NCBI GenBank assembly: GCA_025361585.1
Contig: JANYKK010000161.1
Location: 1-51,232 of the forward strand
DNA: 51,232 nt
From: Methylobacter sp.
Lineage (GTDB): Bacteria; Pseudomonadota; Gammaproteobacteria; Methylococcales; Methylomonadaceae
Direction: 5' to 3'
Shown here: piece after piece, positions 1-45,980 of the stretch
How positions within the stretch are numbered: the first letter of the stretch is position 1
How the letters are laid out: every line of letters begins with the position of its first letter
Position numbers and translations under genes: made by a program
Notes under the pieces: model-generated
The model's database searches: none
The model's input: the letters and a program-made list of their open reading frames with translations, nothing else
What the model was told of the DNA's origin: nothing

Positions 1-1496
1 TGGGGATTAATGGATCGCGCTTCGGCGCTGTAAGCGCTTAACAAGATCGCATCGGCATCCTGTCGTCTTTTCGGGGTGTATTTTACTTCGGGTATTAATG
101 CGTGGATTTTATTGTAACGCTGTTCGCTTTCATCCAGGTTGAGCAGTTTTTGGATCGGAGACGAAAAGTCGGTTTCTTTGGGATTATAGGTCTGGGTTTC
201 CAGGATAGTACCGCCCCGGTTTTGCCAGTCTTCCGCTAAATAATTGGCGATACGTTTGCCCTGCGCGTTATCAGGAATCAGCAACAGTGCTTTTCGATGT
301 CCGTCCGCCCACGCTTTATGAGTGATTTGTTCGGTGTCATCCAGTGGGCTGAGACTAAACTGGTAAAGCCGTTTTTTTTGCAAGCCGGGGACATGGTTTA
401 AAGCTAGCACTGGTGTATTGAAGCTAACCGTATCGGCTAGGCTTTGGATTTGTTCTTTCGCCAATGGGCCAATGATCAATTGCGCGCCTTCTGCGACAGC
501 CTGATTGTATAAGGCTTGCGGCGTCGATTGTTCGCTGTCGTAAAAGCGGATCGCGGGTTTGGAAGTCTTATCCTCATGGTTGTAAGCCGCCATAAATCCG
601 GCACGAATGGCTTTTCCTGCCTGTGCAAAAGTCCCCGATCCGGGCAATAATAGCGCGATGGTGGCTTTGGCTTGCAAGGGCGTATTGGTCGGCGTGTCTT
701 GAGGGCTATTTAAGAAGCTTAAATCGGCAGGATGGGCAGGATACGTTGCACGCCACTGGCTTATTTGCGCATTGAAGTCAGGTTGGTTTAAATTTTTCAA
801 AATCTTAGCTAATGACAGCCAGCCAGACAAGGCGTCTGTCTGGTTGCTCTGCAAGGCGGCGTCAGGCAGCAGGCGTAACGCTTCAAGAATCGCGGCCTGA
901 TTTTTTTCCAGTTCATCGGGAGACGAGATTAACGGGTGCAGTTCGATTCTGGATTTGGCGCTGCCTAGCAGGTTGCCGGTTAATGAGTAGGCAAAGGCCT
1001 GCGATTGAAAATACTTAATCTGGTTGTCCAAGCTCAGCTGTTGCGGTTGAATCTGCGCCAGACTTTCAATGGCCTGTTCGGCTTCGCCGAAGCTAAGCAG
1101 GATCTGGACATAAAGCAGGCTCAGCTGAGCGCGTTGCTCGGATGATAGATCGTTAGGATTAATGGCGTCAGCAGCTTTTTTAGCAGTAGTGCCGTCGCCT
1201 GTCTGGATAAAAGATTCGATAGACTGTAGGCGCTGTTGGTTTTGTTCGGAAAACGATGGACTGGGTCGTATCGGTTCCATACCGATTGCGGTACTTCCAC
1301 CACCATCCCTGCCGGTCGAAGGTTGCTGGTATAATTCAAGCATCGGCTCCGGTTGGTCGTTTCTTATCAACGGCTGCGTTATCAGTGCATCCTGCTCAGG
1401 CAAGGCGCTCTTCGCAGGCGCGGGCGTGCAACCGGAGAAAAACACTAGGCCGGGAATCAGGGCGCATAACAATGGCGGCTTATAATTGGGTCGCAT
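1..1496 (-). CDS. lpoA: Penicillin-binding protein activator LpoA-like outer-membrane lipoprotein (3' end runs off the window)
   Basis: Not in the ORF track. Manual translation from ATG at 1496 gives MRPNYKPPLLCALIPGLVFFSGC (lipobox FSGC), then IALLLPGSGTFAQAGKAIRAGF, GAQLIIGPLAKEQI and PVLALN, typical of LppC/LpoA. Divergent from rsmI, the usual arrangement. Confidence 0.88.
   Translation of the reverse strand, partial: MRPNYKPPLLCALIPGLVFFSGCTPAPAKSALPEQDALITQPLIRNDQPEPMLELYQQPSTGRDGGGSTAIGMEPIRPSPSFSEQNQQRLQSIESFIQTGDGTTAKKAADAINPNDLSSEQRAQLSLLYVQILLSFGEAEQAIESLAQIQPQQLSLDNQIKYFQSQAFAYSLTGNLLGSAKSRIELHPLISSPDELEKNQAAILEALRLLPDAALQSNQTDALSGWLSLAKILKNLNQPDFNAQISQWRATYPAHPADLSFLNSPQDTPTNTPLQAKATIALLLPGSGTFAQAGKAIRAGFMAAYNHEDKTSKPAIRFYDSEQSTPQALYNQAVAEGAQLIIGPLAKEQIQSLADTVSFNTPVLALNHVPGLQKKRLYQFSLSPLDDTEQITHKAWADGHRKALLLIPDNAQGKRIANYLAEDWQNRGGTILETQTYNPKETDFSSPIQKLLNLDESEQRYNKIHALIPEVKYTPKRRQDADAILLSAYSAEARSINP
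1264..1318 (-). repeat. Double-hairpin NGGA repeat, in-frame copy in lpoA (STGRDGGGSTAIGMEPIRP)
   Basis: Minus strand reads cgaccggcAGGGAtggtggtggaagtaccgcaatcggtATGGAaccgatacgacc. Aligns with the murF, ftsQ and hoxF copies. Confidence 0.85.
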
Positions 1497-1526
1497 CTTT
1501 TTAGGGTTTTCAAGTGAGAGTATTGA

Positions 1527-2387
1527 ATGTCAAGTGAATGCGGCAAATTATACGTTGTTGCCACGCCGATAGGTAATTTAGCAGATATTACTTTCAGAGC
1601 GGTTGAGGTATTAAAGCAGGTCGATTTGATCGCCGCAGAAGATACCCGGCATGTAAAGCTGTTGCTACAGCATTACGGCATCAGCAATAAACTGATTTCG
1701 CTGCATCAGTATAATGAAGACAAAGCATCAAGCGGGCTGCTGGAAAAGTTGCGAGAAGGCTTATCGATAGCGTTGGTTTCCGATGCAGGAACGCCGCTAC
1801 TTAGCGATCCCGGTATGCCGCTGGTCAAAATGGTCAAAGATGCCGGTGTCGACGTGGTGCCGATACCGGGCGCATGCGCGTTGATTGCGGCCTTGTCGGC
1901 GGCGGGCTTGCCGGTCACCCGATTTACGTTTGAAGGCTTTACGCCGCGCACCTCGTCGGGTCGGAAAGCATTTTTTAGTGAACGATTATTATGTCCGACC
2001 ACCTGGGTATTTTACGAATCCAGCCACCGGATTTTGGCCTCATTGCAGGATATGGCCGAAGTTTTGCCGTTGGATCGACAGATCGTGATTGCCAGAGAGT
2101 TGACCAAGCTGCACGAAACCATCGTCAAAACCAGCCTGAGCGAGGCGCTTAAGTTGGTCGAGCAAGATGCCAATATGAGGCGAGGCGAATTTGTGGTGAT
2201 TGTCGATGGAGCGGCCATCGATAAAAAAGAGCAGATCATCACGCCGGAGCAGGAAAAAATACTGCGCGTGTTATTGGGCGAATGCTCGATCAAGACGGCA
2301 GTCGCCATGGCGGTGGAAATTACCGGAGTCAGGAAGAAACTGTTATATCAAGCGGCATTGGATATGGGGAAAGAGGAGGAGGCGTAG
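1527..2387 (+). CDS. rsmI: 16S rRNA (cytidine(1402)-2'-O)-methyltransferase
   Basis: LYVVATPIGNL, IAAEDTR, VSDAGTP, ARELTKLHE and RGEFV motifs. Confidence 0.97.
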   Translation: MSSECGKLYVVATPIGNLADITFRAVEVLKQVDLIAAEDTRHVKLLLQHYGISNKLISLHQYNEDKASSGLLEKLREGLSIALVSDAGTPLLSDPGMPLVKMVKDAGVDVVPIPGACALIAALSAAGLPVTRFTFEGFTPRTSSGRKAFFSERLLCPTTWVFYESSHRILASLQDMAEVLPLDRQIVIARELTKLHETIVKTSLSEALKLVEQDANMRRGEFVVIVDGAAIDKKEQIITPEQEKILRVLLGECSIKTAVAMAVEITGVRKKLLYQAALDMGKEEEA

Positions 2388-2434
2388 GATCTGCTGAATG
2401 CAGTGAAACGCATTCCATCCCAGCAATGCAAGTC

Positions 2435-2445
2435 TGTGGTACACT
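2435..2445 (+). promoter_or_regulatory. Putative extended -10 promoter for rnpB
   Basis: TGTGG-TACACT, ending about 7 nt before the predicted rnpB 5' end. Confidence 0.5.
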
Positions 2446-2452
2446 AAGCGCT

Positions 2453-2806
2453 GAAAGAGTCGGCTGAGCAGTCGCTGTTTTATCGCAAGATAAGATGGAG
2501 GAAAGTCCGGGCTCCGCTGGGCAGGGTGCCAGGTAACGCCTGGGAGGCGTGAGCCTACGGAAAGTGCCGCAGAAAATATACCGCCTGTCACTTAGGTGAC
2601 CGGTAAGGGTGAAAAGGTGCGGTAAGAGCGCACCGCGCAACTGGTAACAGGAGTGGCAGGGTAAACCCCACCCGGAGCAAGATCAAATAGAGGGACAGAC
2701 GCGTGGCCCGCGCGGTTCCTGGGTAGATTGCTTGAGCTGCAGGGTGACTTGCAGCCTAGATGAATGACTGTTCTCGACAAAACCCGGCTTATAGGCCGAC
2801 TCTTTC
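2453..2806 (+). ncRNA. rnpB: RNase P RNA, class A
   Basis: GAGGAAAGTCCGGGC near the 5' end, GGTAAGAGCGCACC, GGTAAACCCCACCCGGAGCAAG, and ACAAAACCCGGCTTA at the 3' end. P1 pairing gaaagagtcggc/gccgactctttc. Confidence 0.97.
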
Positions 2807-3094
2807 TTCCTTCTTCCTTTTTCCGAGTGTTTTTTGCTCGGTATATGTTGTTCTTCTAAAAACGCAAAAAGCATCCGGTAATTATTGCGGCATTATCCTT
2901 GATGCATATCTCATTTTTATCTAAAAAACCGAAAACTTCCGGCAATCTCACACTTAAAGTAATTTCTCACTAAGACTGATTAACATTCTGATAAAGGATG
3001 GGAATTATTTTGCCATTTATTCCGTAGTTATATTCCATGCTGATTGTGATGTAAGTCATTGGTGAAAAAGAAAGAATTTAACGTGAAATCATTC

Positions 3095-3123
3095 TTGACT
3101 AGGGGTTGTTAGAAAACTATAGT
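3095..3123 (+). promoter_or_regulatory. Sigma70 promoter of the dcw operon
   Basis: TTGACT-N17-TATAGT upstream of mraZ. Confidence 0.8.
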
Positions 3124-3155
3124 GGGCATAAGTGGTAAAAAGTGGAAAGAAATGG
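3121..3155 (+). promoter_or_regulatory. MraZ operator: four GTGG-type repeats at 10-bp period
   Basis: AGTGG at 3121, 3131 and 3141, and AATGG at 3151. Overlaps the -10 and start region, matching known MraZ binding repeats. Confidence 0.85.
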
Positions 3156-3182
3156 TTTTTTAGGGGGAGTCTGGGGTGAATC

Positions 3183-3647: not shown

Positions 3648-3657
3648 TGCGGGAGAT

Positions 3658-4860: not shown

Positions 4861-6642
4861 ATGATACATTTCCAAGGCAAAAGCAGGACGCACGGCAAAG
4901 ACGGCAATTTTTCGGGCCGGTCGTATCGGTTTCACCATGACGGTAACGACGCTTCCAGCAATTATGGCGGTCGAAGGAAAATAGTCGTCGTTTTTATCAT
5001 GGCTTGTATGGCGGTGCTGGTAGGTCGGGCCATCGATTTGCAGGTATTGAATAAGCAGTTTCTGAAGGATCAGGGCGACATGCGCCATGTCAGCGAGGTG
5101 TCGGTTTCGGCATACCGGGGCATGATAAAAGATAGAAATGGCGCGCCGTTGGCAATTAGCACCCCGGTCGAGTCGATATGGATGAATCCGCAACAGATTG
5201 AGCCGGGAAAAGAAGGCGAAATCAGGCAAGCGGAAAAATTGTTGGGCTTACCTAAGGGAAAGATTAGGGAGTCGATTAAGGCCGATGCGCATAGGCAGTT
5301 TGCCTATCTAGCCCGCCAGGTTAGTCCGGTGGTTGCCGATCAGGTCAAAGCATTAAAGCTTGCGGGCATATATTTCGAACGGGAGTTCAAGCGGTTTTAT
5401 CCGGCCGGAGAGGTTTCGGCGCATTTGGTCGGTTTTACCGATATTGACGATGTGGGGCAAGCGGGGCTTGAATCGGGATATGAAAAATCATTAAAAGGAA
5501 TTCCGGGCAGCAAGCGGGTTATCAGGGATGGGCAGCGGCGGATTATCGAAGATGTAGAAAACATAAAAGAGCCAGTTGATGGCAAGAACCTGGAGTTAAG
5601 CATTGATCAGCGTATCCAGTATCTCGCATATCGCGAGTTGCAGTTGGCGGTTAATTTGCACAAGGCAAAATCGGCGGCGTTGGTGGTATTGGATGCAAAG
5701 AGCGGGGAAATTTTGGCGGCAGTCAATCAGCCGTCATTTAACCCGAATACCCGAAAGAGTTTAAAGGAAAGTCTGTACCGGAATAGATCGTTAACCGATG
5801 TTTTCGAGCCGGGGTCAACGGTTAAGCCATTTGTGGTCGCGGCTGCTTTGGACGGGGGTTATGTTAAGCCGAATGACATATTTGAAACCCATGGCGTCTA
5901 TCAGATTGGCAGTCATGTGGTTAAGGATGTACATAATTATGGAACGCTGGATTTAACAGGCGTGCTGAAAAAATCCAGCAACGTTGCGGTCAGTCAGATT
6001 GCACTGAGCATGCCGCCGGAATATTTTTGGAGGAGCTATCATAAGCTGGGTTTTGGTGTTGCATCGAGCTCCGGTTTTCCTGGAGAAGCCAGTGGAAGCT
6101 TGCTTGACTACCAACACAGGAGCGATTTTGAAACGGCGACATTGGCATTTGGTTATGGCCTGAACACCTCGGCATTGCAGCTGGCAAGAGCCTATACGGC
6201 CTTGGCAGACAACGGAATTTTGCACTCTGTCAGCTTGTTTAGACGGGATGAAGATGTTGACCAGCAGCGAGTGTTTACAGCCAAGACCGCCAAGCGGGTC
6301 AGAGCCATGCTGGAAACCGTGTTAATGAAAGACGGTACCGCTTACGAGGGCAGGGTCGATGGCTACAGTGCAGCCGGCAAGACTGGGACGGTAAAAAAAG
6401 CCGGTGCGGGCGGATATATTGAGAAAAGTTATTTTTCGGTGTTTGCAGGCATGGCGCCGGCAAAGAATCCGCGCTTGATTGTCGTGGTCATGGTTGATGA
6501 GCCCTCTGCGGGGCAATATTACGGTGGGATAGTTTCGGCGCCGGTGTTTTCGAAGGTCATGGCGGGAGCCTTGAGGGTTTTGGGGGTGGCTCCTGATCAG
6601 CAGGATAACATGCCTATCTTGTTAACACGGGGCGATTCATAA
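4861..6642 (+). CDS. ftsI: Peptidoglycan D,D-transpeptidase FtsI (PBP3)
   Basis: RGMIKDRNG, EPGSTVK (SxxK), SSN and KTGT motifs. Confidence 0.97.
   Translation: MIHFQGKSRTHGKDGNFSGRSYRFHHDGNDASSNYGGRRKIVVVFIMACMAVLVGRAIDLQVLNKQFLKDQGDMRHVSEVSVSAYRGMIKDRNGAPLAISTPVESIWMNPQQIEPGKEGEIRQAEKLLGLPKGKIRESIKADAHRQFAYLARQVSPVVADQVKALKLAGIYFEREFKRFYPAGEVSAHLVGFTDIDDVGQAGLESGYEKSLKGIPGSKRVIRDGQRRIIEDVENIKEPVDGKNLELSIDQRIQYLAYRELQLAVNLHKAKSAALVVLDAKSGEILAAVNQPSFNPNTRKSLKESLYRNRSLTDVFEPGSTVKPFVVAAALDGGYVKPNDIFETHGVYQIGSHVVKDVHNYGTLDLTGVLKKSSNVAVSQIALSMPPEYFWRSYHKLGFGVASSSGFPGEASGSLLDYQHRSDFETATLAFGYGLNTSALQLARAYTALADNGILHSVSLFRRDEDVDQQRVFTAKTAKRVRAMLETVLMKDGTAYEGRVDGYSAAGKTGTVKKAGAGGYIEKSYFSVFAGMAPAKNPRLIVVVMVDEPSAGQYYGGIVSAPVFSKVMAGALRVLGVAPDQQDNMPILLTRGDS
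4919..4973 (-). repeat. Degenerate NGGA repeat copy in the ftsI cytoplasmic N-tail (antisense; SYRFHHDGNDASSNYGGR)
   Basis: ggtcgtatcggtt...cgacgcttcc...tggcggtcg. The first 13 nt are identical to the lpoA copy and the ends match the ftsQ outer copy. The loop is decayed. Confidence 0.65.
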
Positions 6643-6643
6643 C

Positions 6644-8167: not shown

Positions 8168-8183
8168 AGGTGCAAGGCGAACG

Positions 8184-9596
8184 ATGAATATGATGCTGAG
8201 TGAAATTGCAGGCTTTGTGCAGGGACAGCTGGTCGGGAACGATGTTGAAGTCACATCGGTCAGCATCGACACACGGGCGATAAAGCCGGGCGAGCTTTAT
8301 GTCGCGATTAAAGGCCATAACTTCGACGGCAATGAGTTTGTGGGGCTGGCTGAACAGGCAGGTGCCGCGGCTGCCATTGTGAATAAAGGCGTTACGGCGA
8401 CTGCCATGGATGGTGGAAGTGTCGGAATCAGTAGGGAACTGATGCGACCGACGATACCGCACATTGTGGTTGACGATACGCACCTGGCATTGGCCCAGCT
8501 TGCAGGAGCTTGGCGGAACAAAGCCTTGGTATCGGTCGTTGGCATTACCGGCAGTAATGGCAAGACCACCGTCAAGGAAATGGTGGCGGCAATATTGAGT
8601 GTGAACGGCAATACGCTGTTTACCCAAGGCAACTTGAATAACGACATCGGCGTACCTTTGACCTTGTTGCGGCTGAACGGGCAACATCAGTACGTAGTTG
8701 TCGAGATGGGCGCAAACCATCCGGGCGAAATTGAATATACCAGCCGAATTGCGCAAGCGGACGTGGCGATTATCACCAATGTGGGGCCTGCGCATATCGA
8801 AGGGTTCGGTAGCGTTGACGGTGTCGCCAAAGCCAAAGGGGAAATAATCCAGACATTAAAACAGGATGGCGTGGCGGTGCTTAATCGGGATGATGAATAT
8901 TTCGACTACTGGCAAACGGTTGCAGGAACAAGAAAGGTGATGTCTTTCGGGATCGATGAGCGGTCTGAGGTGAAAGCGCATTCCGTTAAAACGGAAATCA
9001 TTAACCAAGCGTTCGCAACGACCTTTGAGCTGGTGACCGCAAAAGGCGAGTCGACGGTAAAGCTAAAACTGGCAGGTCGACATAACGTCGTCAACGCCTT
9101 GGCGGCAACGGCGGCTTGTCTGGCGCTGAACATCGATTTGCAACAGATAAAACAAGGGTTGGAAAGCGTAAAGCCGGTTACCGGGCGCTTGCAGCCGCTG
9201 GTAAGCCGCTTAGGCAATATCGTGATCGATGATACCTATAACGCCAATTCCGCCTCACTGAAAGCGGGGCTGGATGTGCTGGCGAACTGTGCCGACGAGC
9301 GCTGGCTGGTTTTAGGGGCTTTTGGCGAATTGGGGCCGGAAAGCCCGAAAATACATGAACAAATGGGTGAACTAATCAAATCAAGTGGTGTCGCGCGTCT
9401 CCTGGCTATAGGTTCTGATGCCCGAAATACTGTAAAGGTTTTTGGCAAAGGAGCCGCTTTTTTTGATACCCAAGAAGATTTAATTGAAACATTAAAACAA
9501 GAACTCAAAGGCGATGAAGCGATCTTGGTCAAAGGGTCGAGGGCTCAGCGCATGGAGAATGTAGTGGCCGCGCTGGTTGAAAATTTCAGGAAATAG
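8184..9596 (+). CDS. murF: UDP-MurNAc-tripeptide:D-Ala-D-Ala ligase
   Basis: [41 protein letters not shown]. Confidence 0.97.
8398..8452 (+). repeat. Double-hairpin NGGA repeat, in frame in murF ([17 protein letters not shown])
   Basis: cgactgccATGGAtggtggaagtgtcggaatcagtAGGGAactgatgcgaccgac; about 45/56 identical to the reverse complement of the hoxF copy. Confidence 0.9.
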
Positions 9597-10683: not shown

Positions 10684-12177
10684 ATGGATAGTGCAGCGAT
10701 TACAGCATCATTGAAAAAGAATTTCGCGTTGGATCCGCAAACGGCCAAGGTATTGGTCGTGGGGCTGGGCGACACGGGAATTTCGGTTGCGCATTATTTG
10801 CAAGGCTTAGGTTTTAAGTTCGCCATTATCGATAGCCGCGCCCAGCCGCCGATGATGGATGAGTTTTCTCAGCAGATGCCCGATACGCCGGTGTTTACCG
10901 GGGGCTTCGATGAGGCCGCGTTTAAGGTGGCAACGCATCTGGTGGTCAGTCCCGGCGTATCGCTGAATGAGCAGGCAATTGTTAAAGCCATAGCCAACGG
11001 TTCGAAAATAGTCAGCGATATAGACCTGTTTGCCTGTTCTGTCGATGTACCCATCGTTGCAATCAGCGGCTCGAATGGCAAAAGTACGGTAACCACCATG
11101 CTCGGTGAAATGGCAAAAGCGGCGGGAGTGGAAGTGGGCGTAGGCGGAAATTTGGGCACACCTGCTCTGGATTTGCTGGCGTTAAATGCGCAGCTTTATG
11201 TGCTGGAGCTGTCGAGTTTTCAGCTGGAGCGAACATCGGCTTTGAATGCGGCGGCAGCGACCGTGCTCAATGTCAGCGCCGACCATCTGGACAGGCATGT
11301 CGATTTGGCCGAATACGCTCGGGAAAAACAAAGAGTGTTCCGGGGTGACGGCGTGATGATTATCAACGTCGATGATCCTGTTGTCGATGCGATGCGGGAC
11401 GACTGCATGGATGCAGGAGGTAGAGCACCAAAAGTAGGCGCTTTAGGCGATGCTGGAGCAATTGCCGACGACAGCAGAAAGACATTCACCTTTTCAATTA
11501 ACAACAAAGCCGATTTCCACCTTGCATACCAAGGCGACACGGAATACCTGATGCACAACGAATCGCGCCTGATGCCGTTGGCTGAGTTGCCGCTGGAAGG
11601 CAGACATAACGCGGCCAATGCCTTGGCAGCACTGGCCTTGGGCGTGGCCGTGGGATTGGAAGAACAAGCTATGTGCAATGCCTTGCGAAAATTTAAAGGA
11701 CTAAGCCATCGAATGCAGCGTGTCGCAGAGATTCGCGGCGTCACCTGGGTTAACGACTCGAAAGCGACCAATATCGGTGCCTGTGTTGCCGCTTTGCAGG
11801 GCTACGCGCGCAAGGTGATTTTGATTGCGGGTGGCGATGCTAAAGGTGCCGACATGAATGAATTGACGTCTGCCATCAAAGAAAAAGCCAAAAGCGTAGT
11901 GTTGATGGGGAAGGATGCGGGGTTGATAAAGCAGGCCTTGAATGGCTGCGTCCCAGTCTATTCGGCAAGCAACATGGCGGAAGCGGTACAGATTGCAGCG
12001 GGTCTTGCCGATGCCGGTGAAAGCGTTTTGTTGTCGCCCGCCTGCGCGAGTCTCGATCAATATAAAAATTATCAGGATCGGGGTGAAAAATTTACCAAAG
12101 CGGTATTGGCGTTAGTTGACCGTACTGCATCGCCTAAGGCACCGACATTGATTCCGCCATCGATGGTGATCATATGA
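10684..12177 (+). CDS. murD: UDP-MurNAc-L-Ala:D-glutamate ligase
   Basis: GSNGKSTVT, LELSSFQL, DHLDRH, NDSKATN, LSPACAS. Confidence 0.97.
   Translation: MDSAAITASLKKNFALDPQTAKVLVVGLGDTGISVAHYLQGLGFKFAIIDSRAQPPMMDEFSQQMPDTPVFTGGFDEAAFKVATHLVVSPGVSLNEQAIVKAIANGSKIVSDIDLFACSVDVPIVAISGSNGKSTVTTMLGEMAKAAGVEVGVGGNLGTPALDLLALNAQLYVLELSSFQLERTSALNAAAATVLNVSADHLDRHVDLAEYAREKQRVFRGDGVMIINVDDPVVDAMRDDCMDAGGRAPKVGALGDAGAIADDSRKTFTFSINNKADFHLAYQGDTEYLMHNESRLMPLAELPLEGRHNAANALAALALGVAVGLEEQAMCNALRKFKGLSHRMQRVAEIRGVTWVNDSKATNIGACVAALQGYARKVILIAGGDAKGADMNELTSAIKEKAKSVVLMGKDAGLIKQALNGCVPVYSASNMAEAVQIAAGLADAGESVLLSPACASLDQYKNYQDRGEKFTKAVLALVDRTASPKAPTLIPPSMVII
11400..11469 (+). repeat. NGGA repeat variant with a nested 22-nt mini-element, in frame in murD (DCMDAGGRAPKVGALGDAGAIAD)
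   Basis: cgactgcATGGAtgcaggaggtagagca[ccaaaagtaggcgctttaggcg]atgcTGGAgcaattgccgac. Confidence 0.85.
12118..12172 (-). repeat. Inverted degenerate composite repeat forming the MurD C-terminal tail (RTASPKAPTLIPPSMVI)
   Basis: Reverse complement gatcaccatcgatggcggaat-caatgtcggtgccttaggcg-atgcag. The ASPKAPT peptide is also found in the antisense frame of the 11400 copy. Confidence 0.75.
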
Positions 12178-12187
12178 GCATGCAGCA

Positions 12188-13357
12188 ATGAAAGCACGGA
12201 GCCGCCAATTTTATTTCGATCCGATGTTGCTATTCGTGAGCATTAGTTTATTGCTGATCGGTTATGTGATGGTGGCATCCGCCTCATTGCATCTGGGCAT
12301 AAAGTTGACCGGCGACGGTTTGTATTATCCGGTCAGGCAGTTAATGCATATCGGTTTGGGGCTTATTTTCGGCGGGGGCGTGGCGTCAGTTCCGATGCGG
12401 GTTTGGGAGCAAAATGGCCCCCGGCTGTTCATTGCTGGATTGCTGTTGCTGATCATCGTGCTGATTCCCGGTTTGGGCGTAAAGGTTAACGGTAGTGTGC
12501 GTTGGCTGTCGATAGGCGGGGTAAGAATGCAGGTATCCGAAGTGGTGAAGTTTTTTTCGGTCATCTATATGGCCGGATATGTGACCCGGTACCAGGAGTC
12601 CGTGCAGAAAGCGGCTTTTGGATTGATTAAACCGCTAGGGCTGTTTTCAGTGGCTAGTTTGCTGCTGTTGCTGGAACCGGATTTCGGTTCGGCTGTCGTC
12701 ATTACAATGATAGCCATGGGCATCATGTTTTTAGCAGGTGCGAGACTATCGCAATTTATTGTGTTGTTGTTGGGCATTGGCGTATTGGCCATGATGCTGG
12801 TTTATTTTTCGCCTTATCGATTGGTGCGGGTCACCAGTTTTATGGATCCTTGGGCTGATCCGTTGAAAAGCGGATTTCAATTAGTCCAGGCGCTTATTTC
12901 GTTCGGGCGAGGGGAATGGTTGGGCGTGGGTTTGGGTAGCGGCATACAAAAATTATTTTATTTACCCGAAGCGCATACGGATTTCCTGTTTTCGGTGATC
13001 GGTGAAGAGCTGGGTCTTCTGGGCGTAGTGTCCGTGATTGGCTTATTTTCGTTATTGGTCTGGCGCAGCTTTGCAATAGGTGTTGCCGCCGAACAGGCAG
13101 GCCAACGGTTTTCAGCATTTATTGCCTATGGTTTGGGCATTTGGTTCGGATTCCAGTCATTCGTCAACATGGGTGTCAATATGGGCGTATTGCCAACCAA
13201 AGGCCTGACCTTGCCATTAATGAGTTATGGCGGTGGCAGCATGATGATCATGTGTTGTGCGATTGCATTGCTATTCCGGGTGCAAAGCGAAGTCGCCGAA
13301 CTCAATGCTGGTAAGGCTCCTAAGCAGCGCATGGGAACGAGAGTTCGGCATGGCTAA
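12188..13357 (+). CDS. ftsW: Peptidoglycan glycosyltransferase FtsW
   Basis: Multi-TM SEDS protein: RWL, EPDFGS, YLPEAHTDF, PTKGLTLPLMSYGG. Confidence 0.97.
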   Translation: MKARSRQFYFDPMLLFVSISLLLIGYVMVASASLHLGIKLTGDGLYYPVRQLMHIGLGLIFGGGVASVPMRVWEQNGPRLFIAGLLLLIIVLIPGLGVKVNGSVRWLSIGGVRMQVSEVVKFFSVIYMAGYVTRYQESVQKAAFGLIKPLGLFSVASLLLLLEPDFGSAVVITMIAMGIMFLAGARLSQFIVLLLGIGVLAMMLVYFSPYRLVRVTSFMDPWADPLKSGFQLVQALISFGRGEWLGVGLGSGIQKLFYLPEAHTDFLFSVIGEELGLLGVVSVIGLFSLLVWRSFAIGVAAEQAGQRFSAFIAYGLGIWFGFQSFVNMGVNMGVLPTKGLTLPLMSYGGGSMMIMCCAIALLFRVQSEVAELNAGKAPKQRMGTRVRHG

Positions 13358-14465
13358 GCGCATCGTTATTATGGCTGGAGGAACCGGCGGGCATGTGTTT
13401 CCGGCGCTTGCGGTAGCTCAAGAATTGATCGAAAAAGGCTGGAAGGTCAGCTGGTTGGGTACGCAAAAGGGGCTGGAAGGCCGGGTAATTCCCGAGCAGG
13501 GTATTGAGATCGATTGGCTGTCAGTTGCCGGTGTGCGGGGCAAAGGTTGGTTGTCGAAAATAACTGCCGTATTGTTGTTGGCGAAGGCTTGCATTCAGGC
13601 CTTGAAAATATTGCGGCAGCGCAAACCGGATGTGGTTTTGGGCATGGGCGGCTTTGTGGCGGGCCCTGGTGGATTAATGGCAAAACTATTGGGTATCCCA
13701 CTGGTCATACACGAGCAAAATCGGGTGCCCGGCACCACGAACCGGCTGTTGGCGCGCATGGCTAACCAAGTGTTGGAAGCCTTTCCGGGCAGCTTTGATA
13801 AAAAGCTGAATGCAAAATTTACCGGAAACCCGTTAAGGAAACAGTTTGTAATCCCCCTCAATCCCCCTTTTTCAAAGGCGGAGGCTAATTCTCCCTTTGA
13901 AAAAGCCCATGACCTAATTCCCCCCTTTAAAAAAGGGGGGCAAGGGGGGATTAAAGTATTAGTCGTTGGCGGCAGCCAAGGAGCCCAGATATTGAATGAA
14001 GTCGTGCCCGAGGCGTTGGCCGATTTAAATAATGTAGCCGTGCGGCATCAAACCGGCGCAGCCATGCAGCAGCAGGTCGAGAGTCGTTATAAAGAATTAG
14101 GCGTGAATGCGGAAGTTGCTGCCTTTATAGAAGACATGGTGTCGGCCTATCAATGGGCGGATCTGGTGATTTGCAGATCCGGCGCAATGACTGTCAGCGA
14201 GGTGTCGGCCTCTGGGGTACCCGCGATATTTATACCATTACCGAACGCGATAGACGATCATCAAACTGCTAATGCCCGGTATTTAACCGATGCCGGTGCC
14301 GGACTGCTGTTGATGCAAAAAGACTTGAATGCGGCAATGCTGGCAAATCAGATAAACAAGGTACTGACGCAATTGGATGTGATGAGTAAAACAGTAAAAA
14401 AATACGCCCGTTTGGATGCGACCCAAATCGTTGCCGGTGTTTGCATGACCGAGGCTGGGCTATGA
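13350..14465 (+). CDS. murG: Lipid II GlcNAc transferase MurG
   Basis: [37 protein letters not shown] at 13350 overlaps the ftsW end. Confidence 0.97.
13849..13953. mobile_element. ~105-bp MITE-like inverted-repeat element in frame in the MurG interdomain linker
   Basis: 30-bp imperfect terminal inverted repeats (24/30; taatccccc...aaagg / cctt...gggggatta) with TA at both ends and an internal third arm. Encodes [35 protein letters not shown]. Confidence 0.8.
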
Positions 14466-17723: not shown

Positions 17724-18533
17724 ATGGCCGTTGTAAAAATCATGGTCGCTGCATTGCTGTTTGCAAGCCTAACCTGGGCGGCAAGCGTGGGCATCAAAAT
17801 CATCCCGATTAAATATGTGCGTACCGAGGGGGTTTTTCAATACCTCAGTAAGGAAGAAATAAAGGCAGCTTTGCGGCCCTTAGTGATGACCGGTTTTTTC
17901 GATGCCGATATGCAAGCCATACATCAGGCGGTTTCGGAATTGACTTGGGTGGATACGGTGACGGTCAAACGGGTCTGGCCGGACGCTATAGACATAAAGA
18001 TACGCGAAAAGAAGCCTTATGTGCGCTGGGGGCTGCAAAGCCTGATCAGTACACGGGGTGAGATTATTACGCCGAAGAATATAGAGCCGTTTAATAACCT
18101 GCCGATTTTACAAGGGCCGGAGCAGCAACAGGTAAAGACGCTGGAAATAATGAAGGGTGTAAACACAGCATTAGCCGATCAATCGATGAAAATGGCGGAG
18201 TTCACGATTAATGATCGCTGGGCATGGAAGATTAAATTAACAACAGGCTTGGAAATATTGTTGGGACGCAATGAACAGCTAAAGAAATTACAGCGGTTTT
18301 TAAAAACGCTGGACGTATTAGGACAAGAACAAGTTGAGAAAATAGCCATAGTCGATTTGAGATATCCCAATGGATATGCGGTTTCATGGAAACCGGGAAC
18401 TGAAGAAATCGACTGGTCGCATCGGTTCCATACCGATGCGACACTTCTGACCCCCAGGGATGGGGGAAATGCCGCAAGACTGCCGGGAGCAGTTGCGGCC
18501 TCCATCCTTGGCGGTCGGAAGAATAATGGTTAG
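17724..18533 (+). CDS. ftsQ: Cell division protein FtsQ with a repeat-derived C-terminal extension
   Basis: TM, POTRA domain (VKRVWPD) and VDLRYPNGYAVSW, followed by about 40 extra residues. Confidence 0.93.
   Translation: MAVVKIMVAALLFASLTWAASVGIKIIPIKYVRTEGVFQYLSKEEIKAALRPLVMTGFFDADMQAIHQAVSELTWVDTVTVKRVWPDAIDIKIREKKPYVRWGLQSLISTRGEIITPKNIEPFNNLPILQGPEQQQVKTLEIMKGVNTALADQSMKMAEFTINDRWAWKIKLTTGLEILLGRNEQLKKLQRFLKTLDVLGQEQVEKIAIVDLRYPNGYAVSWKPGTEEIDWSHRFHTDATLLTPRDGGNAARLPGAVAASILGGRKNNG
18415..18517. repeat. Nested NGGA repeats: antisense outer copy (18415-18447 plus 18501-18517) interrupted by a sense inner copy (18448-18500)
   Basis: Outer copy has a perfect 11-bp stem gtcgcatcggt/accgatgcgac, then acttc//tccatccttggcggtcg. 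Inner copy is tgacccccAGGGAtgggggaaatgccgcaagactgcCGGGAgcagttgcggcc. Confidence 0.88.
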
Positions 18534-31366: not shown

Positions 31367-34300
31367 ATGAATCATAATTGTAGCAAAGCGAAGCGTGCTT
31401 TTTTTAGCGGTTCCATTCGGCGCCAATTAGCGTGGTCATTTGGCGGCGTTGCGCTGATCATGATGATAGCTCTGGCCGGCATGTTATTCGAGCGGCAGCG
31501 TAATTTTCTTTATAGCGCCGCGATGAAGCAGGGTCAATCGCTGGCCACGTCACTCGCCAGCAGCAGCACATCATGGGTATTGGCCAACGATATTGCAGGA
31601 TTAAGGGAAGTGTTGCAGGGGTTTGTCGACCTGCCCGATTTGGAGCGAGCCTATATCTTATCGTTGCGCGGCGAAGTGCTCAGTTCCACAAGGGCAAACG
31701 AAGCAGGGCTGTTTGTTACCGATGAACAAAATCAAAAATTGTTGAGCGCCCCGCCAAAAACGCAAGTGCTGCTTGCCAATACCCGTCAAATTGAAATCGC
31801 CGCACCGGTGATGGCAGGGCAGCGTCATGTAGGATGGGCGCGGGTGGAAATGACCATGAACGGGGTCAATACCAATCTTCGTTCGGTCATAGTCATGGGT
31901 ATCTATTTTATAGCATTTGCAGCGTTGACCCTCTTGATTGCTGCAATGCTGCTGGCGCGAACACTCACCAGAAGATTGCGCCACCTGATGCAGGTAGCCG
32001 CTGAAGTCGAAGGAGGAAATCTCGAGGTGCGGGCGCAGATTTCCGGCAATGATGAAGTCGGCATACTGGCGCACGGGTTTAATCAAATGTTGGATGTGCT
32101 ATCCAATTCGGAACGGCAGAGGGAGCGCATCAACAACTTGTATGCGGCATGGACCCGGAGCGCCGACGTTATTGTGCGCGAACCGGACGAGGTTAAGCTG
32201 CTGACCGAGGTCTGTCGGATCATAGCCAGTCATGTTGCCTTTAAGCTGGTCTGGGTGGGCATGACTGAGCCGGATGGCTGGGTGCGGACGGTTGCGGCCA
32301 GTCATCCAGATTCTAGCTATCTTAGGAATATCAAAGTCTCGGCAGATGAGGCGTTACCGGAAGGGCGCGGTCCGGTGGGGAGTGCTATCCGGGATGGTGT
32401 GCCAAGAATTTTCAACAACTTTCTTGAGGAGCCCAGTACGCTGCCCTGGCAACCGATGGCAGCTACGGAAAACATTAACGCGGCGGCGGCATTTCCGCTG
32501 ATGCGCGGCGGACGCTGCGTTGGGGCTATTGCCGTTTATTCGGATGAACAAGGCTACTTTACACCCGACCTGATTGATTTGATGCGCGGACTGACGGACG
32601 ATCTTTCCTATGCGCTTGAACACAACGACCGTGAGAAGCTGCGGCTCAAGGCCGAGCATGAGCTGCGCATTGCGGCGGCGGCGTTTGAATCCCAGGAAGG
32701 CATTATCGTCACCGATGCCGACAATAAAATCCTGCGCGTCAACAAGTCGTTTACCGAACTCACCGGCTACAGCATGGATGAGGTTATCGGCAAACCCGCA
32801 GGCATACTTAGATCCGGCCGCCAAGACCGTGCGTTTTATACCGCGATGTGGGAATGCATCAAGCGCAACAAATACTGGCAAGGCGAAATATGGAATAAGA
32901 AGAAAAACGGCGTTATTTATCCTGAATGGCTGTGCATTACCGCCATTACCGACCCCGAAGGCCTGATTACCAACTATGTCGGTACCTTCACCGACATCAG
33001 TCAGCGCAAGGCCGATGAAGAGCGGATCAGGGATCTGGCCTACTACGATTCCCTGACCAAATTGCCTAACCGCACCTTGCTGTTCGACCGGCTCAACCTA
33101 GCGCTCAGCGCCAGCAATCGCAACAAGACGCACGGCGCGTTAATGTTCCTCGACCTGGATAATTTCAAAACGCTTAACGATACGCTGGGACATGATCGGG
33201 GCGATCAATTGCTGATCGAAGTGGGGCAGCGCCTGCAAAACTGTGTGCGGGAAGTGGATACCGTAGCCCGGCTTGGCGGGGATGAGTTTGTGGTCATGCT
33301 GGAGTGTCTTGATGAACAGGAGATTGAGGCAGCCATCCAGACCCACGCCATTGCCGAAAAAATCCGCAGTAATTTGGCTGAATTCTACCTGTTGAAAAGC
33401 AATGTCAATCACGCCGGTTCGCTGCCGACTGCGATACTTCTTGCCCCCATGGATGGGGAAAATGCCAACAATACGTTACAGCCTTTAGTCGAACACTATT
33501 CCACAGGTAGCATCGGCTTTGTGCTGTTTCTCGGCCACCAAACCAGCAGCGAAGAGCTGCTCAAACGCGCCGATCTGGCCATGTATCAGGCCAAGAAAGC
33601 CGGGCGAAATGTGATCCGTGCTTTTGTCCCCGAAATGCAGGAAACTTTAAATTTGCGAACCTCTTTGGAAGCCGACTTGCGCAGTGCGCTGGATCGCAAC
33701 GAATTGAGTTTGCATTATCAGGTACAGGTTGAGTCATCAGGACAACCGGTCGGCGCGGAGGCGCTAGTGCGCTGGAATCAGGTCGAGCGCGGCATGATTT
33801 CTCCGGCCGAATTTATTCCGCTGGCCGAAGAAACGGGTCTGATTCTGCCTATCGGGCATTGGATATTGAGGCAAGGCTGCGAAACCTTGGCTGACTGGAC
33901 AAACTACCCTGAAACCCGCGAGTTGAAATTGGCGGTTAATATCAGCTCTCGGCAGCTTAGTCAGGCCGATTTTGTTGAGCAGGTGCGTGCTATTTTGGCG
34001 GAAACCGGCGCCAATCCCGCGCTGCTAAAATTGGAAATTACCGAGTCGGTAATCCTGGATAATGTTGAAGAGACTATTGCCAAAATGCATGCGGTCAGGG
34101 AGTTGGGGGTTAATTTTTCAATGGATGATTTCGGTACCGGTTATTCCTCTCTGTCTTATCTGCAAAAATTGCCCTTGGAGCAGCTGAAAATAGACCAATC
34201 ATTCGTCAGGAATATGGCTTTTAATAACCACGACTCAGCCATCATTCGAACCATTTTGGCGCTGGGAAAAAATCTGGATCTTAACGTGATTGCCGAAGGC

Positions 34301-37001: not shown

Positions 37002-37805
37002 TTAAATATCTTTAATAACTAAAGCATGGTTTTGTAAATAGATCTGAACGGGCCGGATATGAGCGGCGCTATTCAAATCCTCGCTGACTTTGTAATTTCC
37101 GGCAATCGAAATCAGCTCGGCCTGTAAATCGGTACAAAAAATACGTGCTTCGGTGTTGCCTTGCACACCTGCCAGCGCCCTGCCTCTTAGCGGGCCATAG
37201 ATATGAATATTGCCTTCGGCCATAATTTCAGCCCCGGCACTGACCTGAGCGACAATGATCAAATCACCCGCAGCATAAATGCGCTGACCTGAGCGGACGG
37301 GGAGGGTGATTATGGTGGTGTTTACAGTAACGGCTGGTGGTTCGGGTTCAGATACTTGTTCAAGTTCTGGCTCAGGTTCAGGTTCAGGGGCTTGCTGTTT
37401 TGGCGTTGCCGCAGTGCTCGCCGCACCAGTTCCCGGCTGGTTTGCGGCATACACACCATCCCTGGCGATATGGCCGGAATGTATAGGGATGCCAAGATCC
37501 AAAGCTTGTCGGTTTTGTTGTGCGCTGCCGCCGCGTATCCCTATCGGCAATAAGCCCAGCTTGCGAATGACATGGGTAAGCTCGGTAACATCAATGCCAA
37601 GTTCGAGTTTGTTCAGTTCCTGCAAATCAAACACCAGCGGCGAATTTTTGAAGAACTCAGGTGCTTGCTGGGTTTTTTCTTGCAATTGCTGCTCGATAGT
37701 CATGACATCATTACCGGCTAAAATTAAAACAGGCACGGAAAACGTGCTGCTTTTAAATTCCAGTATCGGCGATTGATGAGCGTTCTGTTGAGAGTCTGTT
37801 GACAT
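37002..37805 (-). CDS. minC: Septum site-determining protein MinC
   Basis: QAPEFFKN, VRSGQRIYA, GNIHIYGPLRGRALAG; long linker with a PE repeat. Confidence 0.96.
   Translation of the reverse strand: MSTDSQQNAHQSPILEFKSSTFSVPVLILAGNDVMTIEQQLQEKTQQAPEFFKNSPLVFDLQELNKLELGIDVTELTHVIRKLGLLPIGIRGGSAQQNRQALDLGIPIHSGHIARDGVYAANQPGTGAASTAATPKQQAPEPEPEPELEQVSEPEPPAVTVNTTIITLPVRSGQRIYAAGDLIIVAQVSAGAEIMAEGNIHIYGPLRGRALAGVQGNTEARIFCTDLQAELISIAGNYKVSEDLNSAAHIRPVQIYLQNHALVIKDI
37420..37469 (-). repeat. NGGA repeat in frame in the MinC linker (IARDGVYAANQPGTGAA)
   Basis: Minus strand atcgccAGGGAtggtgtgtatgccgcaaaccagcCGGGAactggtgcggc. Confidence 0.88.
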
Positions 37806-38116
37806 CCGTTAAGTTTGGTTAGTCGGGAATGATATTGATTTTAACATTGCTAGCAAAAAAAATCATTTTTACACGGCGGATATATAGATTTTTGGGTGGA
37901 TTCTGAGGGGTTTTTGAGATGAGCGCTAGCCCAAGAGTGTCGAATTTTGGGTAATTCATGATGGCAGGCGACGGAGTGATGCTGATTTTAAATAAGGCCG
38001 TATTAAGGTGACTTTGTTGCCAAACCATATGTTTTATAAGGTGTTTACGGTATCTATGATGCGGTTCGAGCTTGCAATCTGTGGCATTATCCTTTAACGT
38101 AGCGATACATCCGTAA

Positions 38117-40138
<2,022 letters not shown>

Positions 40139-40169
40139 GCCGCACTTAATAGCTTCAACTTAAGGTCTA

Positions 40170-40238
40170 TCACCACGAAGGCACGAAGGACACGAAGTTT
40201 ATGTTTTTTTCTTCGTGCCCTTCGTGCCTTCGTGGTGA
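40170..40238. repeat. CACGAAG-unit long inverted repeat after thiC
   Basis: tcaccacgaaggcacgaaggacacgaag ... cttcgtgcccttcgtgccttcgtggtga; sister copy at 44897. Confidence 0.9.
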
Positions 40239-40301
40239 ATTAACCTGCTTGCATCAGTATGAGGGACGCATTGAGCACCCTTTTAAAATAAGGCGAAAAC
40301 A

Positions 40302-43800: not shown

Positions 43801-44026
43801 TTTTCATTTCGAGGCTGGAAGAATAGCCAATATGATTAATGCAAAAAAATACAGCGAGGCGGAAGCAATGCTGGGTAACGGATCCGCGTTCGTTGCCGCG
43901 TCAACGGCAGTGGGGGTTACAATCATGCGTTTGAAAAAAGATTTCAGTTCTTCGTCAAGCACCGTTGTGGCCAAGCCGAAACCCCAGTCAAAACCGGTTG
44001 CCAGCGATGAATGGGAGGAGTTTTGA
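40892..44026 (+). CDS. Methyl-accepting chemotaxis protein (NIT-like sensor, HAMP, Aer2-type PAS, MA, CZB, C-terminal pentapeptide)
   Basis: [68 protein letters not shown], terminal EWEEF. Confidence 0.93.
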
Positions 44027-44069
44027 TTTGTTTTTGGTTTAGGTGATCGAAAGGTCGCCTGGACAAGGC

Positions 44070-44870
44070 CTATTTTTTATTTAAAGCCAGTTTGGCTTGG
44101 TTCCATAAAACATCCAATTCGGCCAGTTCGCAGTCTTTCAAGTTCAGGCCGGATGCTTCAACCTGTTGTTCTATGTGTTGAAAGCGTCTGGAGAATTTTT
44201 TAGTGCTCTCCTTGAGTGCGACTTCTGCATTGACGTTTAAATGTCGGGCCAGATTAACAGTAACCAGCAATAAGTCGCCGATTTCTTCCTGAATATGGGC
44301 CTGATCGCCGGACTGCCAAGCCTCTTTCACCTCATCCAGTTCTTCCAGCACTTTGTCAAAAACCGGCAACACATCCGGCCAGTCAAAGCCATGATTTGCC
44401 GCGCGATCTTGTATTTTTTCACACTCGATCAATGCCGGAAGATTGCGGGCCACGCCGGATAACACGCTGTCCGGTTCAACCGTTTTGTTTTTCTTCTGGC
44501 GTTCGATGGCTTTTTCTTGTTCCCAGGCTTGATGGCGTTCTTCATCGGTGTTGAAAACGGCGTCGGAAAAAACATGCGGATGGCGGCGGATCAGTTTGTC
44601 GCAAATGCCTTCCGAAACTTGCTCAAAAGTGAACAATCCTTGTTCCTCGGCGATCTGGGCATGGAACACCACCTGCAACAGCAGGTCGCCCAGTTCCGAG
44701 CGCAAATCATCCAGGTCATTGCGCTCAATCGCATCGACGACTTCGTAAGCTTCTTCGATCAGGTAGGGGATCAGGCTGGTGAAATCCTGCTTCACATCCC
44801 ACGCGCAGCCTTGTTCAGGGTGGCGCAGGCGCGACATGATGTCTAGGAGGTTTTGGGTGTGTTTTAGCAT
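44070..44870 (-). CDS. mazG: Nucleoside triphosphate pyrophosphohydrolase
   Basis: GCAWD, EEAYEV, ELGDLLLQVVFH, KLIRRHPHVF, EEIGDLL. Confidence 0.96.
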   Translation of the reverse strand: MLKHTQNLLDIMSRLRHPEQGCAWDVKQDFTSLIPYLIEEAYEVVDAIERNDLDDLRSELGDLLLQVVFHAQIAEEQGLFTFEQVSEGICDKLIRRHPHVFSDAVFNTDEERHQAWEQEKAIERQKKNKTVEPDSVLSGVARNLPALIECEKIQDRAANHGFDWPDVLPVFDKVLEELDEVKEAWQSGDQAHIQEEIGDLLLVTVNLARHLNVNAEVALKESTKKFSRRFQHIEQQVEASGLNLKDCELAELDVLWNQAKLALNKK

Positions 44871-44896
44871 GAATAGATTGTTGTAATGGTTTTAAA

Positions 44897-44951
44897 TCAC
44901 CACGAAGACACGAAGGGCACGAAGTTTTATTTCTTCGTGTCTTCGTGGTGA
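44897..44951. repeat. CACGAAG-unit inverted repeat between the pfkB-like gene and mazG
   Basis: tcaccacgaagacacgaagggcacgaag ... cttcgtgtcttcgtggtga. Confidence 0.88.
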
Positions 44952-44984
44952 AAATTTCTTAGTTATCGAGTGATCGGTTAACGA

Positions 44985-45917
44985 TTAAAACGAAGAGCCA
45001 AAATTCTCGCGGTATCGCAGCTTGAAAGACTCCATATCGAACGAATGATTCTGGGTGCCGTTGTTTTCGATTTTAATCGCGCCCATCAAAGAGGCAACCC
45101 TGCCGGTCACTTCCCAGCCCAAGTCATTCATCAGGCCGTATAAAAGCCCTGCGCGATAGGAGTCGCCGCAACCGGTCGGATCAAGTATCTCCTTGGGTTT
45201 TGCCGCAGGAATGGTGATGCATTCGCCGCGGGTGTATATTTGAGAACCTTGGCTACCCAAGGTAATGATCAGTGCATCAACCCGCTCAGCCATTTGTTCC
45301 AGCGACAGTCCGGTACGTTCCTGCATTAGCTCGGATTCGTAATCGTTCAAGGTTACCCAGGTTGCCTGATCGATAAACTTGAGCAATTCTTTGCCATTAA
45401 ACATAGGCATGCCCTGGCCCGGATCGAAAATAAACGGTATATCCAGCTCGGCAAACTGTTCGGCATGTAATTGCATGCCTTCCTTGCCGTCCGGGGACAC
45501 AATGCCGATGCTGATTTTCCGGTTGGTCGGCACTGAATTTAAATGCGAAAAACTCATTGCGCCGGGATGGAAAGCGGTAATCTGGTTGGCTTCTTCGTCG
45601 GTGGTGATATAGGCTTGGCCGGTATAACTGTTGTCCAGAATCTTGATAAACTCGCTGGATAACTGGTTCTGCGCCATCCATTGGGCATAAGGTTCAAAAT
45701 CATGTCCAACGGTAGCCATGGTCAACGGCTCTTCGCCCAGCAATTTCAGGTTGTAGGCAATGTTGCCCGCACAGCCGCCGTATTCGCGCCGCATCACCGG
45801 CACCAGGAATGAGACATTCAGGATGTGGATTTTTTCCGGCAAAATGTGATGTTTGAATTTATCATGAAAAACCATGATGGTATCGTAAGCCATAGACCCA
45901 CAGATTAATGCGCTCAT
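44985..45917 (-). CDS. PfkB-family carbohydrate/nucleoside kinase
   Basis: GSMAYD, GGCAGNIAY, FDPGQ, DPTGCGDSYRAG. Confidence 0.92.
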   Translation of the reverse strand: MSALICGSMAYDTIMVFHDKFKHHILPEKIHILNVSFLVPVMRREYGGCAGNIAYNLKLLGEEPLTMATVGHDFEPYAQWMAQNQLSSEFIKILDNSYTGQAYITTDEEANQITAFHPGAMSFSHLNSVPTNRKISIGIVSPDGKEGMQLHAEQFAELDIPFIFDPGQGMPMFNGKELLKFIDQATWVTLNDYESELMQERTGLSLEQMAERVDALIITLGSQGSQIYTRGECITIPAAKPKEILDPTGCGDSYRAGLLYGLMNDLGWEVTGRVASLMGAIKIENNGTQNHSFDMESFKLRYRENFGSSF

Positions 45918-45930
45918 TGCGTTCCTCTTT

Positions 45931-45980
45931 ATTGTCAGGGATGATGTGTATGCCGCAAGACTGCTGGGAGCAGTCGCGGC
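45931..45980 (+). repeat. Intergenic NGGA repeat copy
   Basis: attgtcAGGGAtgatgtgtatgccgcaagactgcTGGGAgcagtcgcggc. The 5' part is 22/23 identical to the minC copy and the 3' part 29/31 identical to the ftsQ inner copy. Confidence 0.9.

Follow-up and report, generated by a model that had tools for sequence, protein, structure and literature searches.

How do short two-hairpin repeats come to lie, mostly in frame, inside one housekeeping gene after another? The question is raised by a 51,232-nt contig of Methylobacter sp. (JANYKK010000161.1, assembly GCA_025361585.1), referred to as the window, which is contig C3 of a source genome labelled G000 (81% complete, 400 contigs). The genus is called Methylobacter-like here because the best-matching named murF, at 82% identity, belongs to a Methylobacter sp. 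An earlier note on this DNA had described one repeat family at ten loci. Profiles and covariance models found repeat DNA at all ten, exactly at the positions reported there or within a few bases of them, but the single family is replaced by three sibling elements, named A, A' and B, plus two decayed remnants. It is reasonably probable that these are three related two-hairpin elements of 47-52 bases, likely moved as folded single-stranded DNA (ssDNA) by an enzyme acting in trans, likely tolerated through their reading frame, and carrying loops predicted to be CsrA sites.

The comparison with shuffled sequence proposed in the earlier note came out in favour of real repeats, with 24 (A) and 53 (A') profile matches in G000 and none in a Markov-shuffled or a reversed genome. 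Since the copies of A are also matched by the covariance model of A', and vice versa (E 7e-6 and 2.5e-6), these two are subfamilies. Family B has the short hairpin and tail in common with A/A', while its copy in murD is matched by the A model only at E 0.32. Two additional siblings, C and D, are present elsewhere in G000. The parts of a unit on one strand are a long hairpin whose loop has 5 nt, a linker of 6-7 nt, a short hairpin and a tail of 3-4 nt. A and A' units are 51 nt long (52 in the hoxF variant) and B units 47 or 48 nt (69 with an insert). On the opposite strand, the short-hairpin loop reads CA-N-GGA-TG (N being T, G or A) and the long-hairpin loop NNGGA, mostly CGGGA in A'. No basal stem is seen in the folds of A, A' or B units, and their consensus ends lack a GTAG or CGTC tag.

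The stems covary while the loops stay fixed. Across 13 A' copies, 95% of the stem cells are paired and 5 of the 11 long-stem pairs show double changes, a level reached by none of 500 shuffles and one that related copies and palindrome self-repair can inflate. A metagenome set of A' sites was also collected (42 of 64 parts scanned, giving 125 loci and 114 distinct sites, with kin that are not independent). There, the long loop ends in GGA at 109 of 114 sites with the two bases before it varying, the short hairpin being fixed by the search pattern itself. Such GGA loops are the commonest among the perfect hairpins of G000 (72, 70 and 17, versus 6, 5 and 3 after shuffling, the first two counts being of CA-N-GGA-TG loops), and several unrelated repeat families of this genome have the same GGA loop.

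A 261-nt non-coding element (G000:C6:3816-4076; L218:117-377) has sub-terminal inverted repeats and one CA-N-GGA-TG hairpin. It occurs in three full copies that are ~99% identical and in over 20 half copies that sit at the ends of contigs, and has spread very recently. Partial matches are found on Methylobacter and Methylomonas plasmids, and none in Rfam. It was ruled out as the end of an insertion sequence, as it holds no open reading frame.

Family A comprises the copies in lpoA, ftsI, murF, ftsQ and hoxF. The first (1265-1318, plus strand, 54 nt; profile and covariance model) lies in frame in an lpoA-like gene on the minus strand, which has no NCBIfam match and whose name is taken over from the earlier note. 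The 54-nt ftsI copy (4920-4973, plus strand; covariance model) is decaying and lies in frame in the N-terminal tail, and the 51-nt murF copy (8398-8448, minus strand) adds 17 predicted residues in frame. Close to the 3' end of ftsQ, an A copy (18416-18517, plus strand, 102 nt in total) is split by an A'-type element (18448-18499, minus strand) nested inverted in its linker. The hoxF copy (24420-24471, plus strand), a 52-nt variant, lies five codons before the native stop. Compared by eye, it is identical to the murF copy at ~43/53 positions with one gap, near the 45/56 reported before. Besides the element nested in ftsQ, A' includes a 51-nt copy (37419-37469, plus strand) in frame in the MinC linker region, the gene being on the minus strand, and an intergenic copy (45931-45981, minus strand) just upstream of a carbohydrate/nucleoside kinase gene. 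The B copy (11400-11468, minus strand) lies in frame in murD and measures 69 nt with a 21-nt internal insert; on the GGA strand, the B linker holds a strong Shine-Dalgarno-like AGGAGG. A decayed remnant of related elements (12118-12172, minus strand) makes up the murD C-terminus, and a decayed composite of A and the remnant of a nested element (33405-33470, plus strand; covariance model E 0.015) is in frame in a PAS/GGDEF/EAL gene. These two (12118-12172 and 33410-33470) are unmatched by the final profiles at E 0.01, while the GGDEF locus is corroborated by intact A copies at the identical site in 7 of 15 relatives.

These loci are insertions, given the empty alleles in close relatives. The search of orthologues for empty sites that had been suggested yielded clean ones at lpoA, ftsI, murF, murD, ftsQ, hoxF, GGDEF and minC. 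In the murF survey (41 genomes, 30 loci fetched), the insert is present in 5 of 23 genus alleles and absent from all 7 alleles taken from other families within the order, so that orthologues lack the peptide, contrary to the refuting case of the earlier note. Filled alleles amount to 8/21 at ftsI, 8/21 at ftsQ, 2/21 at murD (11400-11468), 7/23 at hoxF and 8/16 at GGDEF, the last with tandem and nested copies in relatives. At lpoA, 3 carriers were found among 14 orthologues, one of which misses the site, and at minC 7 full-length copies and 1 partial copy among 30. Relatives also carry inserts at sites beyond those of the window, namely in murE (7/21), in ddl (2/21) and at two more positions in murF. 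For the 3' copy in murD, no clean empty allele was found among the relatives, most of which hold variable remnants.

Filled junctions are longer by exactly one unit (in A and A', 51 nt), whose placement is ambiguous by about one base, and no target duplication is seen at any empty/filled pair read. The bases 5' of the site are characteristic: A' has C at -4 in 91% of the sites, followed by A, whereas A follows pyrimidine-G and B follows C-T. These bases resemble the element's own 3' end, which lets a new copy land behind an old one and thereby explains the head-to-tail arrays with an exact period of 51 or 48 nt. Copies also land in loops and linkers of each other and of other repeats, examples being a B within an A loop, an A' type sitting inverted within an A linker, and B in B; 9 of 25 full B copies lie within other repeats.

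It is highly probable that insertion is blind to genes and that selection keeps the copies that preserve the frame, in tolerant loops and tails. Gene calls were made with our own simple caller (2,898 genes in G000, coding density 0.82). The genome scan for intragenic and intergenic hits proposed in the earlier note places 56 of 71 A/A' copies within called genes (A 16/21, A' 40/50), a share in line with the coding density (p 0.54). Among the siblings, 19/77 (B), 10/25 (C) and 0/24 (D) copies are in genes, and among control repeats 2/111 (CGTC), 1/146 (CACGAA) and 20/74 (GTAG), i.e. 3/257 for CGTC and CACGAA jointly. B provides a natural control of length: 8 of 9 classifiable internal copies measure 48 nt, compared with 47 nt for 21 of 29 intergenic copies (p 0.002; 7 unclassified and 4 C-terminal copies excluded), indicating that selection filters for frame. 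The A' consensus is stop-free in all six frames. In the metagenome set, 103 of 114 sites lie in coding frames, and 61 of these 103 use one frame that gives a Gly/Ala-rich predicted peptide; overall, copies use five frames and both orientations.

The claim that no copy breaks the frame stood for all internal copies (lpoA 54, ftsI 54, murF 51, murD 69, minC 51 and GGDEF ~60 nt) and failed at two places, both C-terminal, which is the only position where off-frame variants persist. The 52-nt hoxF copy shifts the frame of the tail and replaces the last five codons, whereas the 102-nt ftsQ insert is itself in frame and an additional base directly after it replaces the 11-residue native tail. With the hoxF insert (window 24420-24479), the hoxF/hoxU stop/start overlap of empty alleles is lost as well, and translational coupling may change as a result. 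Cell-wall and division genes are not specially favoured: the hosts are diverse and also include dnaN, leuS, recC, rapA, hisC, nadE, glnE, aroE, waaF, sufD, epmA, comEC and others. In a structure model of MurF (mean pLDDT, the predicted local distance difference test, 90.9), values below 50 occur only at residues 72-86, which are the insert, between two beta strands and in a gap of the comparison with 1GG4. MurF is thus predicted to fold normally, with the insert alone as a disordered loop.

The A model gave 20-48 matches in each of four genomes of the genus (G000 included). Of 20 other genomes of the family, 10 held 1-11 matches, and 77 genomes from further families of the order held none. An A pattern matched 3 of 401 genomes of the class; in class tallies the unpublished genome G085 counts as a single row, and no claim depends on it alone. 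In a distant genome, a close variant forms tandem arrays with a 51-nt unit, and longer repeats with the same short hairpin were read in four other genomes. In Rfam, a longer relative in another genome gave only a sub-threshold match to Ysr224. At contig ends C43 and C93 (L240, L250) of G373, from a different family, at least 3-4 A-like units of 51 nt form an array, behind genes that look trmB-like and sox-like by eye. Viral contigs gave one A match and six B matches. In a plasmid collection, A and A' were unmatched, whereas B is 97.9-100% identical over its length in six of nine records, all Pseudoalteromonas. There, all three records read show B at a C-T site within a different repeat, and in one plasmid it lies in frame in a pglX gene. 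This implies a recent transfer between orders. The description of the element as active or recently active can be kept in part: some sites are old and decaying, while the 100% identical B in Pseudoalteromonas is indirect support for it.

Trees were built with FastTree, the species tree being based on 11 dcw proteins of 21 genomes. On this tree, carriers are about as scattered as random labels at murF, ftsQ, murE, hoxF, ftsI and GGDEF, with 4 of 4, 7 of 8 and 5 of 6 changes required at murF, ftsQ and hoxF; minC is the only site with clustered carriers (p 0.017). A single gain per site would require 5-8 losses. The carriers have site-specific variants in common, i.e. a compensatory pair (murF), one additional base (hoxF) and a rare stem (minC), and precise loss or homing is what this combination of scatter and common variants suggests. 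The best fit is that each site was filled once and then cleanly emptied in some lineages, or that copies homed without co-conversion. The patchiness might accordingly come from homing or short-tract gene conversion between species, from filled to empty alleles, instead of excision. That distant carriers have such variants in common agrees with this, as does the minC insert, whose divergence among 7 carriers is 0.055 versus 0.345 at four-fold sites (window 37419-37469; L146-L150, L160). On local DNA trees, however, carriers are not grouped and flanks follow the species tree, and the inserts of ftsI and murE have accumulated differences in situ (0.22-0.26, with 0.42-0.46 at four-fold sites; nested copies inflate this in part). 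Homing as the source of the patchiness is therefore regarded as unlikely, although it deserves to be kept in mind.

In the preferred mechanism, the element would move as folded ssDNA, with the enzyme supplied from elsewhere in the genome. Insertion would add exactly one unit without target duplication, behind bases like the element's own 3' end, and copies would persist in genes since 51 or 48 bases preserve the frame, mostly the frame giving a Gly/Ala/Ser-rich peptide. An HUH/Y1 enzyme in trans would also excise copies without a scar, which would leave carriers scattered over the tree. Transcripts of the GGA strand would offer two CsrA sites ~25 nt apart. Transposons of the IS200/IS605 type insert without duplication, have asymmetric hairpin ends and use a short 5' target that resembles the element's 3' end. 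All of these traits are found in A, A' and B. Together with the landing in loops and the apparent clean loss, they would be expected of single-strand HUH chemistry, so that a transposase of the HUH/Y1 class (IS200- or RAYT-like) that works in trans is a plausible candidate, to be named with some reserve.

A second candidate is formed by Ssn-like enzymes. On both sides of two small GIY-YIG (Ssn-like) genes of G000, at G000:C117:35611-35907 and C236 ~12147-12430, lie repeats of the CGTC type, in which the same CA-N-GGA-TG hairpin is found and B and D copies are nested. Another three small GIY-YIG genes that were looked at have no such flanks. This arrangement is like that of Ssn systems (PMC11893778), from which A and A' differ in that they do not flank these genes. 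For SsnA, the activity reported is only the cutting of ssDNA, and changes in the loop are tolerated (PMC11893778). A 2.4-kb contig, G000:C68 (L120), encodes an integrase and an IS91-type Y2 transposase; it is absent from four complete relatives and possibly foreign to the bin.

Movement might instead proceed via RNA, with a CsrA-protected GGA-strand transcript being reverse-transcribed and inserted by a borrowed reverse transcriptase. Both loops fit an RNA-binding motif, the third base of GGA is fixed even at a synonymous Gly position, and the same loop is spread over unrelated repeat families of G000. Yet no reverse transcriptase was found in G000 (at its 81% completeness), and there is no target duplication, no series of 5' truncations and no G-U wobble bias towards the GGA strand, which makes an RNA route quite unlikely.

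CsrA favours hairpins with ANGGA loops, two of which are bound by one dimer (PMC7366521). A, A' and B have the traits of CsrA targets by sequence, with GGA in short hairpin loops, paired sites and csrA present in G000. Whether their GGA-strand transcripts would bind CsrA at two sites appears evenly balanced from these traits. At most sites, any regulation is likely to be a by-product, and a host function is rated lower than CsrA binding. The C236 GIY-YIG gene has a GGA hairpin ~14 nt ahead of its start codon, a position from which CsrA could block translation. A class-wide count of the hairpin against csrA was uninformative: coding DNA is matched by the pattern too, reversed sequence is too weak a control, and csrA is near-universal. 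G063, considered as a counter-example, was dropped because its matches are ordinary, non-repeat ones in the six loci read.

A further possibility is domestication by the host, in which the elements serve as CsrA-controlled sites or as a dispersed CsrA sponge and are kept by selection. The minC copy, nearly invariant at the base level, is a candidate functional, domesticated copy; the loops are conserved, and the same idea is in print for TwoAYGGAY motifs (PMC4333381, bioRxiv 10.64898/2026.09.22.753630). Any given copy is, however, missing in most relatives, copies occur in both orientations and five frames, and many decay, and as a general explanation domestication is improbable. Ordinary MITEs (miniature transposable elements with inverted repeats) moved by a DDE transposase are very improbable: A' does allow a terminal inverted repeat of 5 bases to be drawn in front of a TA, but no empty/filled pair shows a target duplication, A and B have no terminal inverted repeats and the ends are asymmetric. 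Chance similarity, conserved peptide motifs or an assembly artefact, which could only point to the two of ten loci too decayed for profiles, are refuted by the empty/filled alleles, next to the absence of shuffled matches and the presence of the same inserts at the same sites in independent genomes, in differing frames and strands.

Returning to folded ssDNA moved in trans, several observations weigh against it or against its separate steps. Around Y1, Y2, IS110 and integrase genes of six genomes, none of 57 loci is bracketed by the elements, and three have A, B or C on one side. No bracketing is seen at 37 Y1 loci of six genomes either, with 30 of the 37 matches listed for relatives taken in, and A or A' bracket none of the mobilising enzymes scanned (Y1, IS110, Y2, tyrosine recombinases, reverse transcriptase and GIY-YIG). 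A consistent guide tetranucleotide was not seen by eye either, and the case for Y1 chemistry is one of junction shape. It is because of the missing Y1-type partner and guide bases that HUH chemistry is proposed with reserve; as G000 is 81% complete, a partner gene may be unassembled. G-T versus A-C mismatches mark no functional strand (21 versus 31 in G000, 16 versus 12 in the metagenome set). When 40 host genes were scanned against NCBIfam at E 1e-25, 25 matched and 15 did not, the calls being those of the simple caller. For the CsrA step, only 53 of 85 in-gene copies place GGA in the mRNA (p 0.03), a bias that frame selection could cause, and co-directional intergenic copies show no consistent orientation bias. 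In old ftsI copies the GGA loop has been lost, and G406 (94% complete) has related modules and no csrA match. With csrA in 348 of 400 class genomes, co-occurrence says little.

Some repeats and genes of the window stand apart from these elements. Found in the window are the dcw gene cluster, an operon for a hox hydrogenase, phoBR, the GGDEF/EAL gene and minCD, and its only Rfam matches are an RNase P RNA (2456-2807) and a TPP riboswitch before thiC (38112-38228). An unrelated palindromic repeat outside the GGA superfamily, overlooked by the earlier note, lies in frame in murG (13849-13953, no strand assigned). It pairs a C-run/T-run with an A-run/G-run and varies in length among relatives, one of which carries a B-type peptide within it. 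CACGAA-type inverted repeats have 146 profile matches, 145 of them intergenic, and are found in the window at 40169-40243 and 44892-44960. At G000:C114:5447-5818, a pair of them brackets a 123-aa gene with a GxxExxY motif, a second case in G000, next to the GIY-YIG genes, of other repeats paired with a putative small nuclease. A further short repeat occurs near the ferredoxin region (46884-46928, 47754-47797 and 47902-47926).

Among known systems, Rickettsia palindromic elements (RPEs) are alike in being palindromic non-autonomous repeats in frame in unrelated housekeeping genes, with an enzyme that is not known (PMC10969869, PMC3184786). The earlier proposal of non-autonomous, RPE-like elements adding peptide segments is supported at the DNA level, but for several sibling families instead of one. 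RPEs measure ~105-150 nt and about half of the copies of three families are intragenic (PMC10969869, PMC3184786), compared with ~80-90% for A/A'. By description, not by sequence, the present elements further differ in their 47-52 nt, two GGA-loop hairpins, nested and tandem copies and free-living gammaproteobacterial host. TwoAYGGAY (RF01731) likewise has two adjacent GGA-loop hairpins, proposed as CsrA sites, a variable copy number and a proposed mobile-like spread; its model has 168 positions and a basal stem, and 1,693 of 16,086 matches lie in coding sequences (PMC4333381, bioRxiv 10.64898/2026.09.22.753630). In contrast, the elements described here lack the basal stem, have NNGGA in the long and A-N-GGA-T in the short loop, lie mostly in coding sequences in the case of A/A', and have demonstrated empty sites. 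They did not match RF01731 in Rfam searches; a search of five genomes gave no match either, and its controls likewise gave none.

Repetitive extragenic palindromic (REP) sequences and REPINs are similar as short hairpins with occasional intragenic copies (PMC3733652, PMC3116915), and excision of REPIN doublets has been reported (PMC3116915); the absence of target duplication in the present elements is a further likeness. Unlike these, A, A' and B have no GTAG/CGTC tag, form head-to-tail units instead of inverted doublets and bracket no RAYT gene. BREs, also small repeats in tandem arrays and within coding sequences, differ by description in being ~90 nt long and mostly intergenic (PMC3110155). 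Overall, the present element behaves like RPEs and resembles a stripped-down TwoAYGGAY, and lacks defining features of both, of REPs and of MITEs. Small dispersed repeats of Nostoc (Elhai, 2008), reportedly shorter, are also said to occur in tandem arrays and coding sequences.

No description of these families was found in the literature searched, although supplements and subscription journals could list them. Intragenic repeats, a mobile-like TwoAYGGAY and the CsrA idea are already in print (PMC10969869, PMC3184786, PMC3733652, PMC3110155, PMC4333381, bioRxiv 10.64898/2026.09.22.753630). New is the combination of a 51-nt GGA double hairpin at coding density, exact empty sites, a natural frame control and scatter across species. 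A far-reaching and still doubtful interpretation is that A/A' might represent minimal frame-neutral mobile DNA. Of triplet length and nearly stop-free, it would have the coding genome as its habitat, toggle 17 residues on and off by scar-free excision, parasitise repeats and each other, and seed paired CsrA sites in dozens of mRNAs, with an enzyme not yet linked to it.

In practical terms, the inserts lengthen MurF, MinC, DnaN, LeuS and other proteins, disturb alignments and break metagenome assemblies. Palindromic elements in coding sequences have so far been centred on Rickettsia, without a mechanism, and the same behaviour is now seen in a free-living genus with dozens of genomes. The exact empty/filled pairs, the 47- versus 48-nt control of B, the target rules and the identical B in culturable Pseudoalteromonas make mobility, excision and peptide tolerance testable. 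This links the question of how palindromes in coding sequences spread with that of whether GGA repeats of the TwoAYGGAY kind are mobile and are bound by CsrA.

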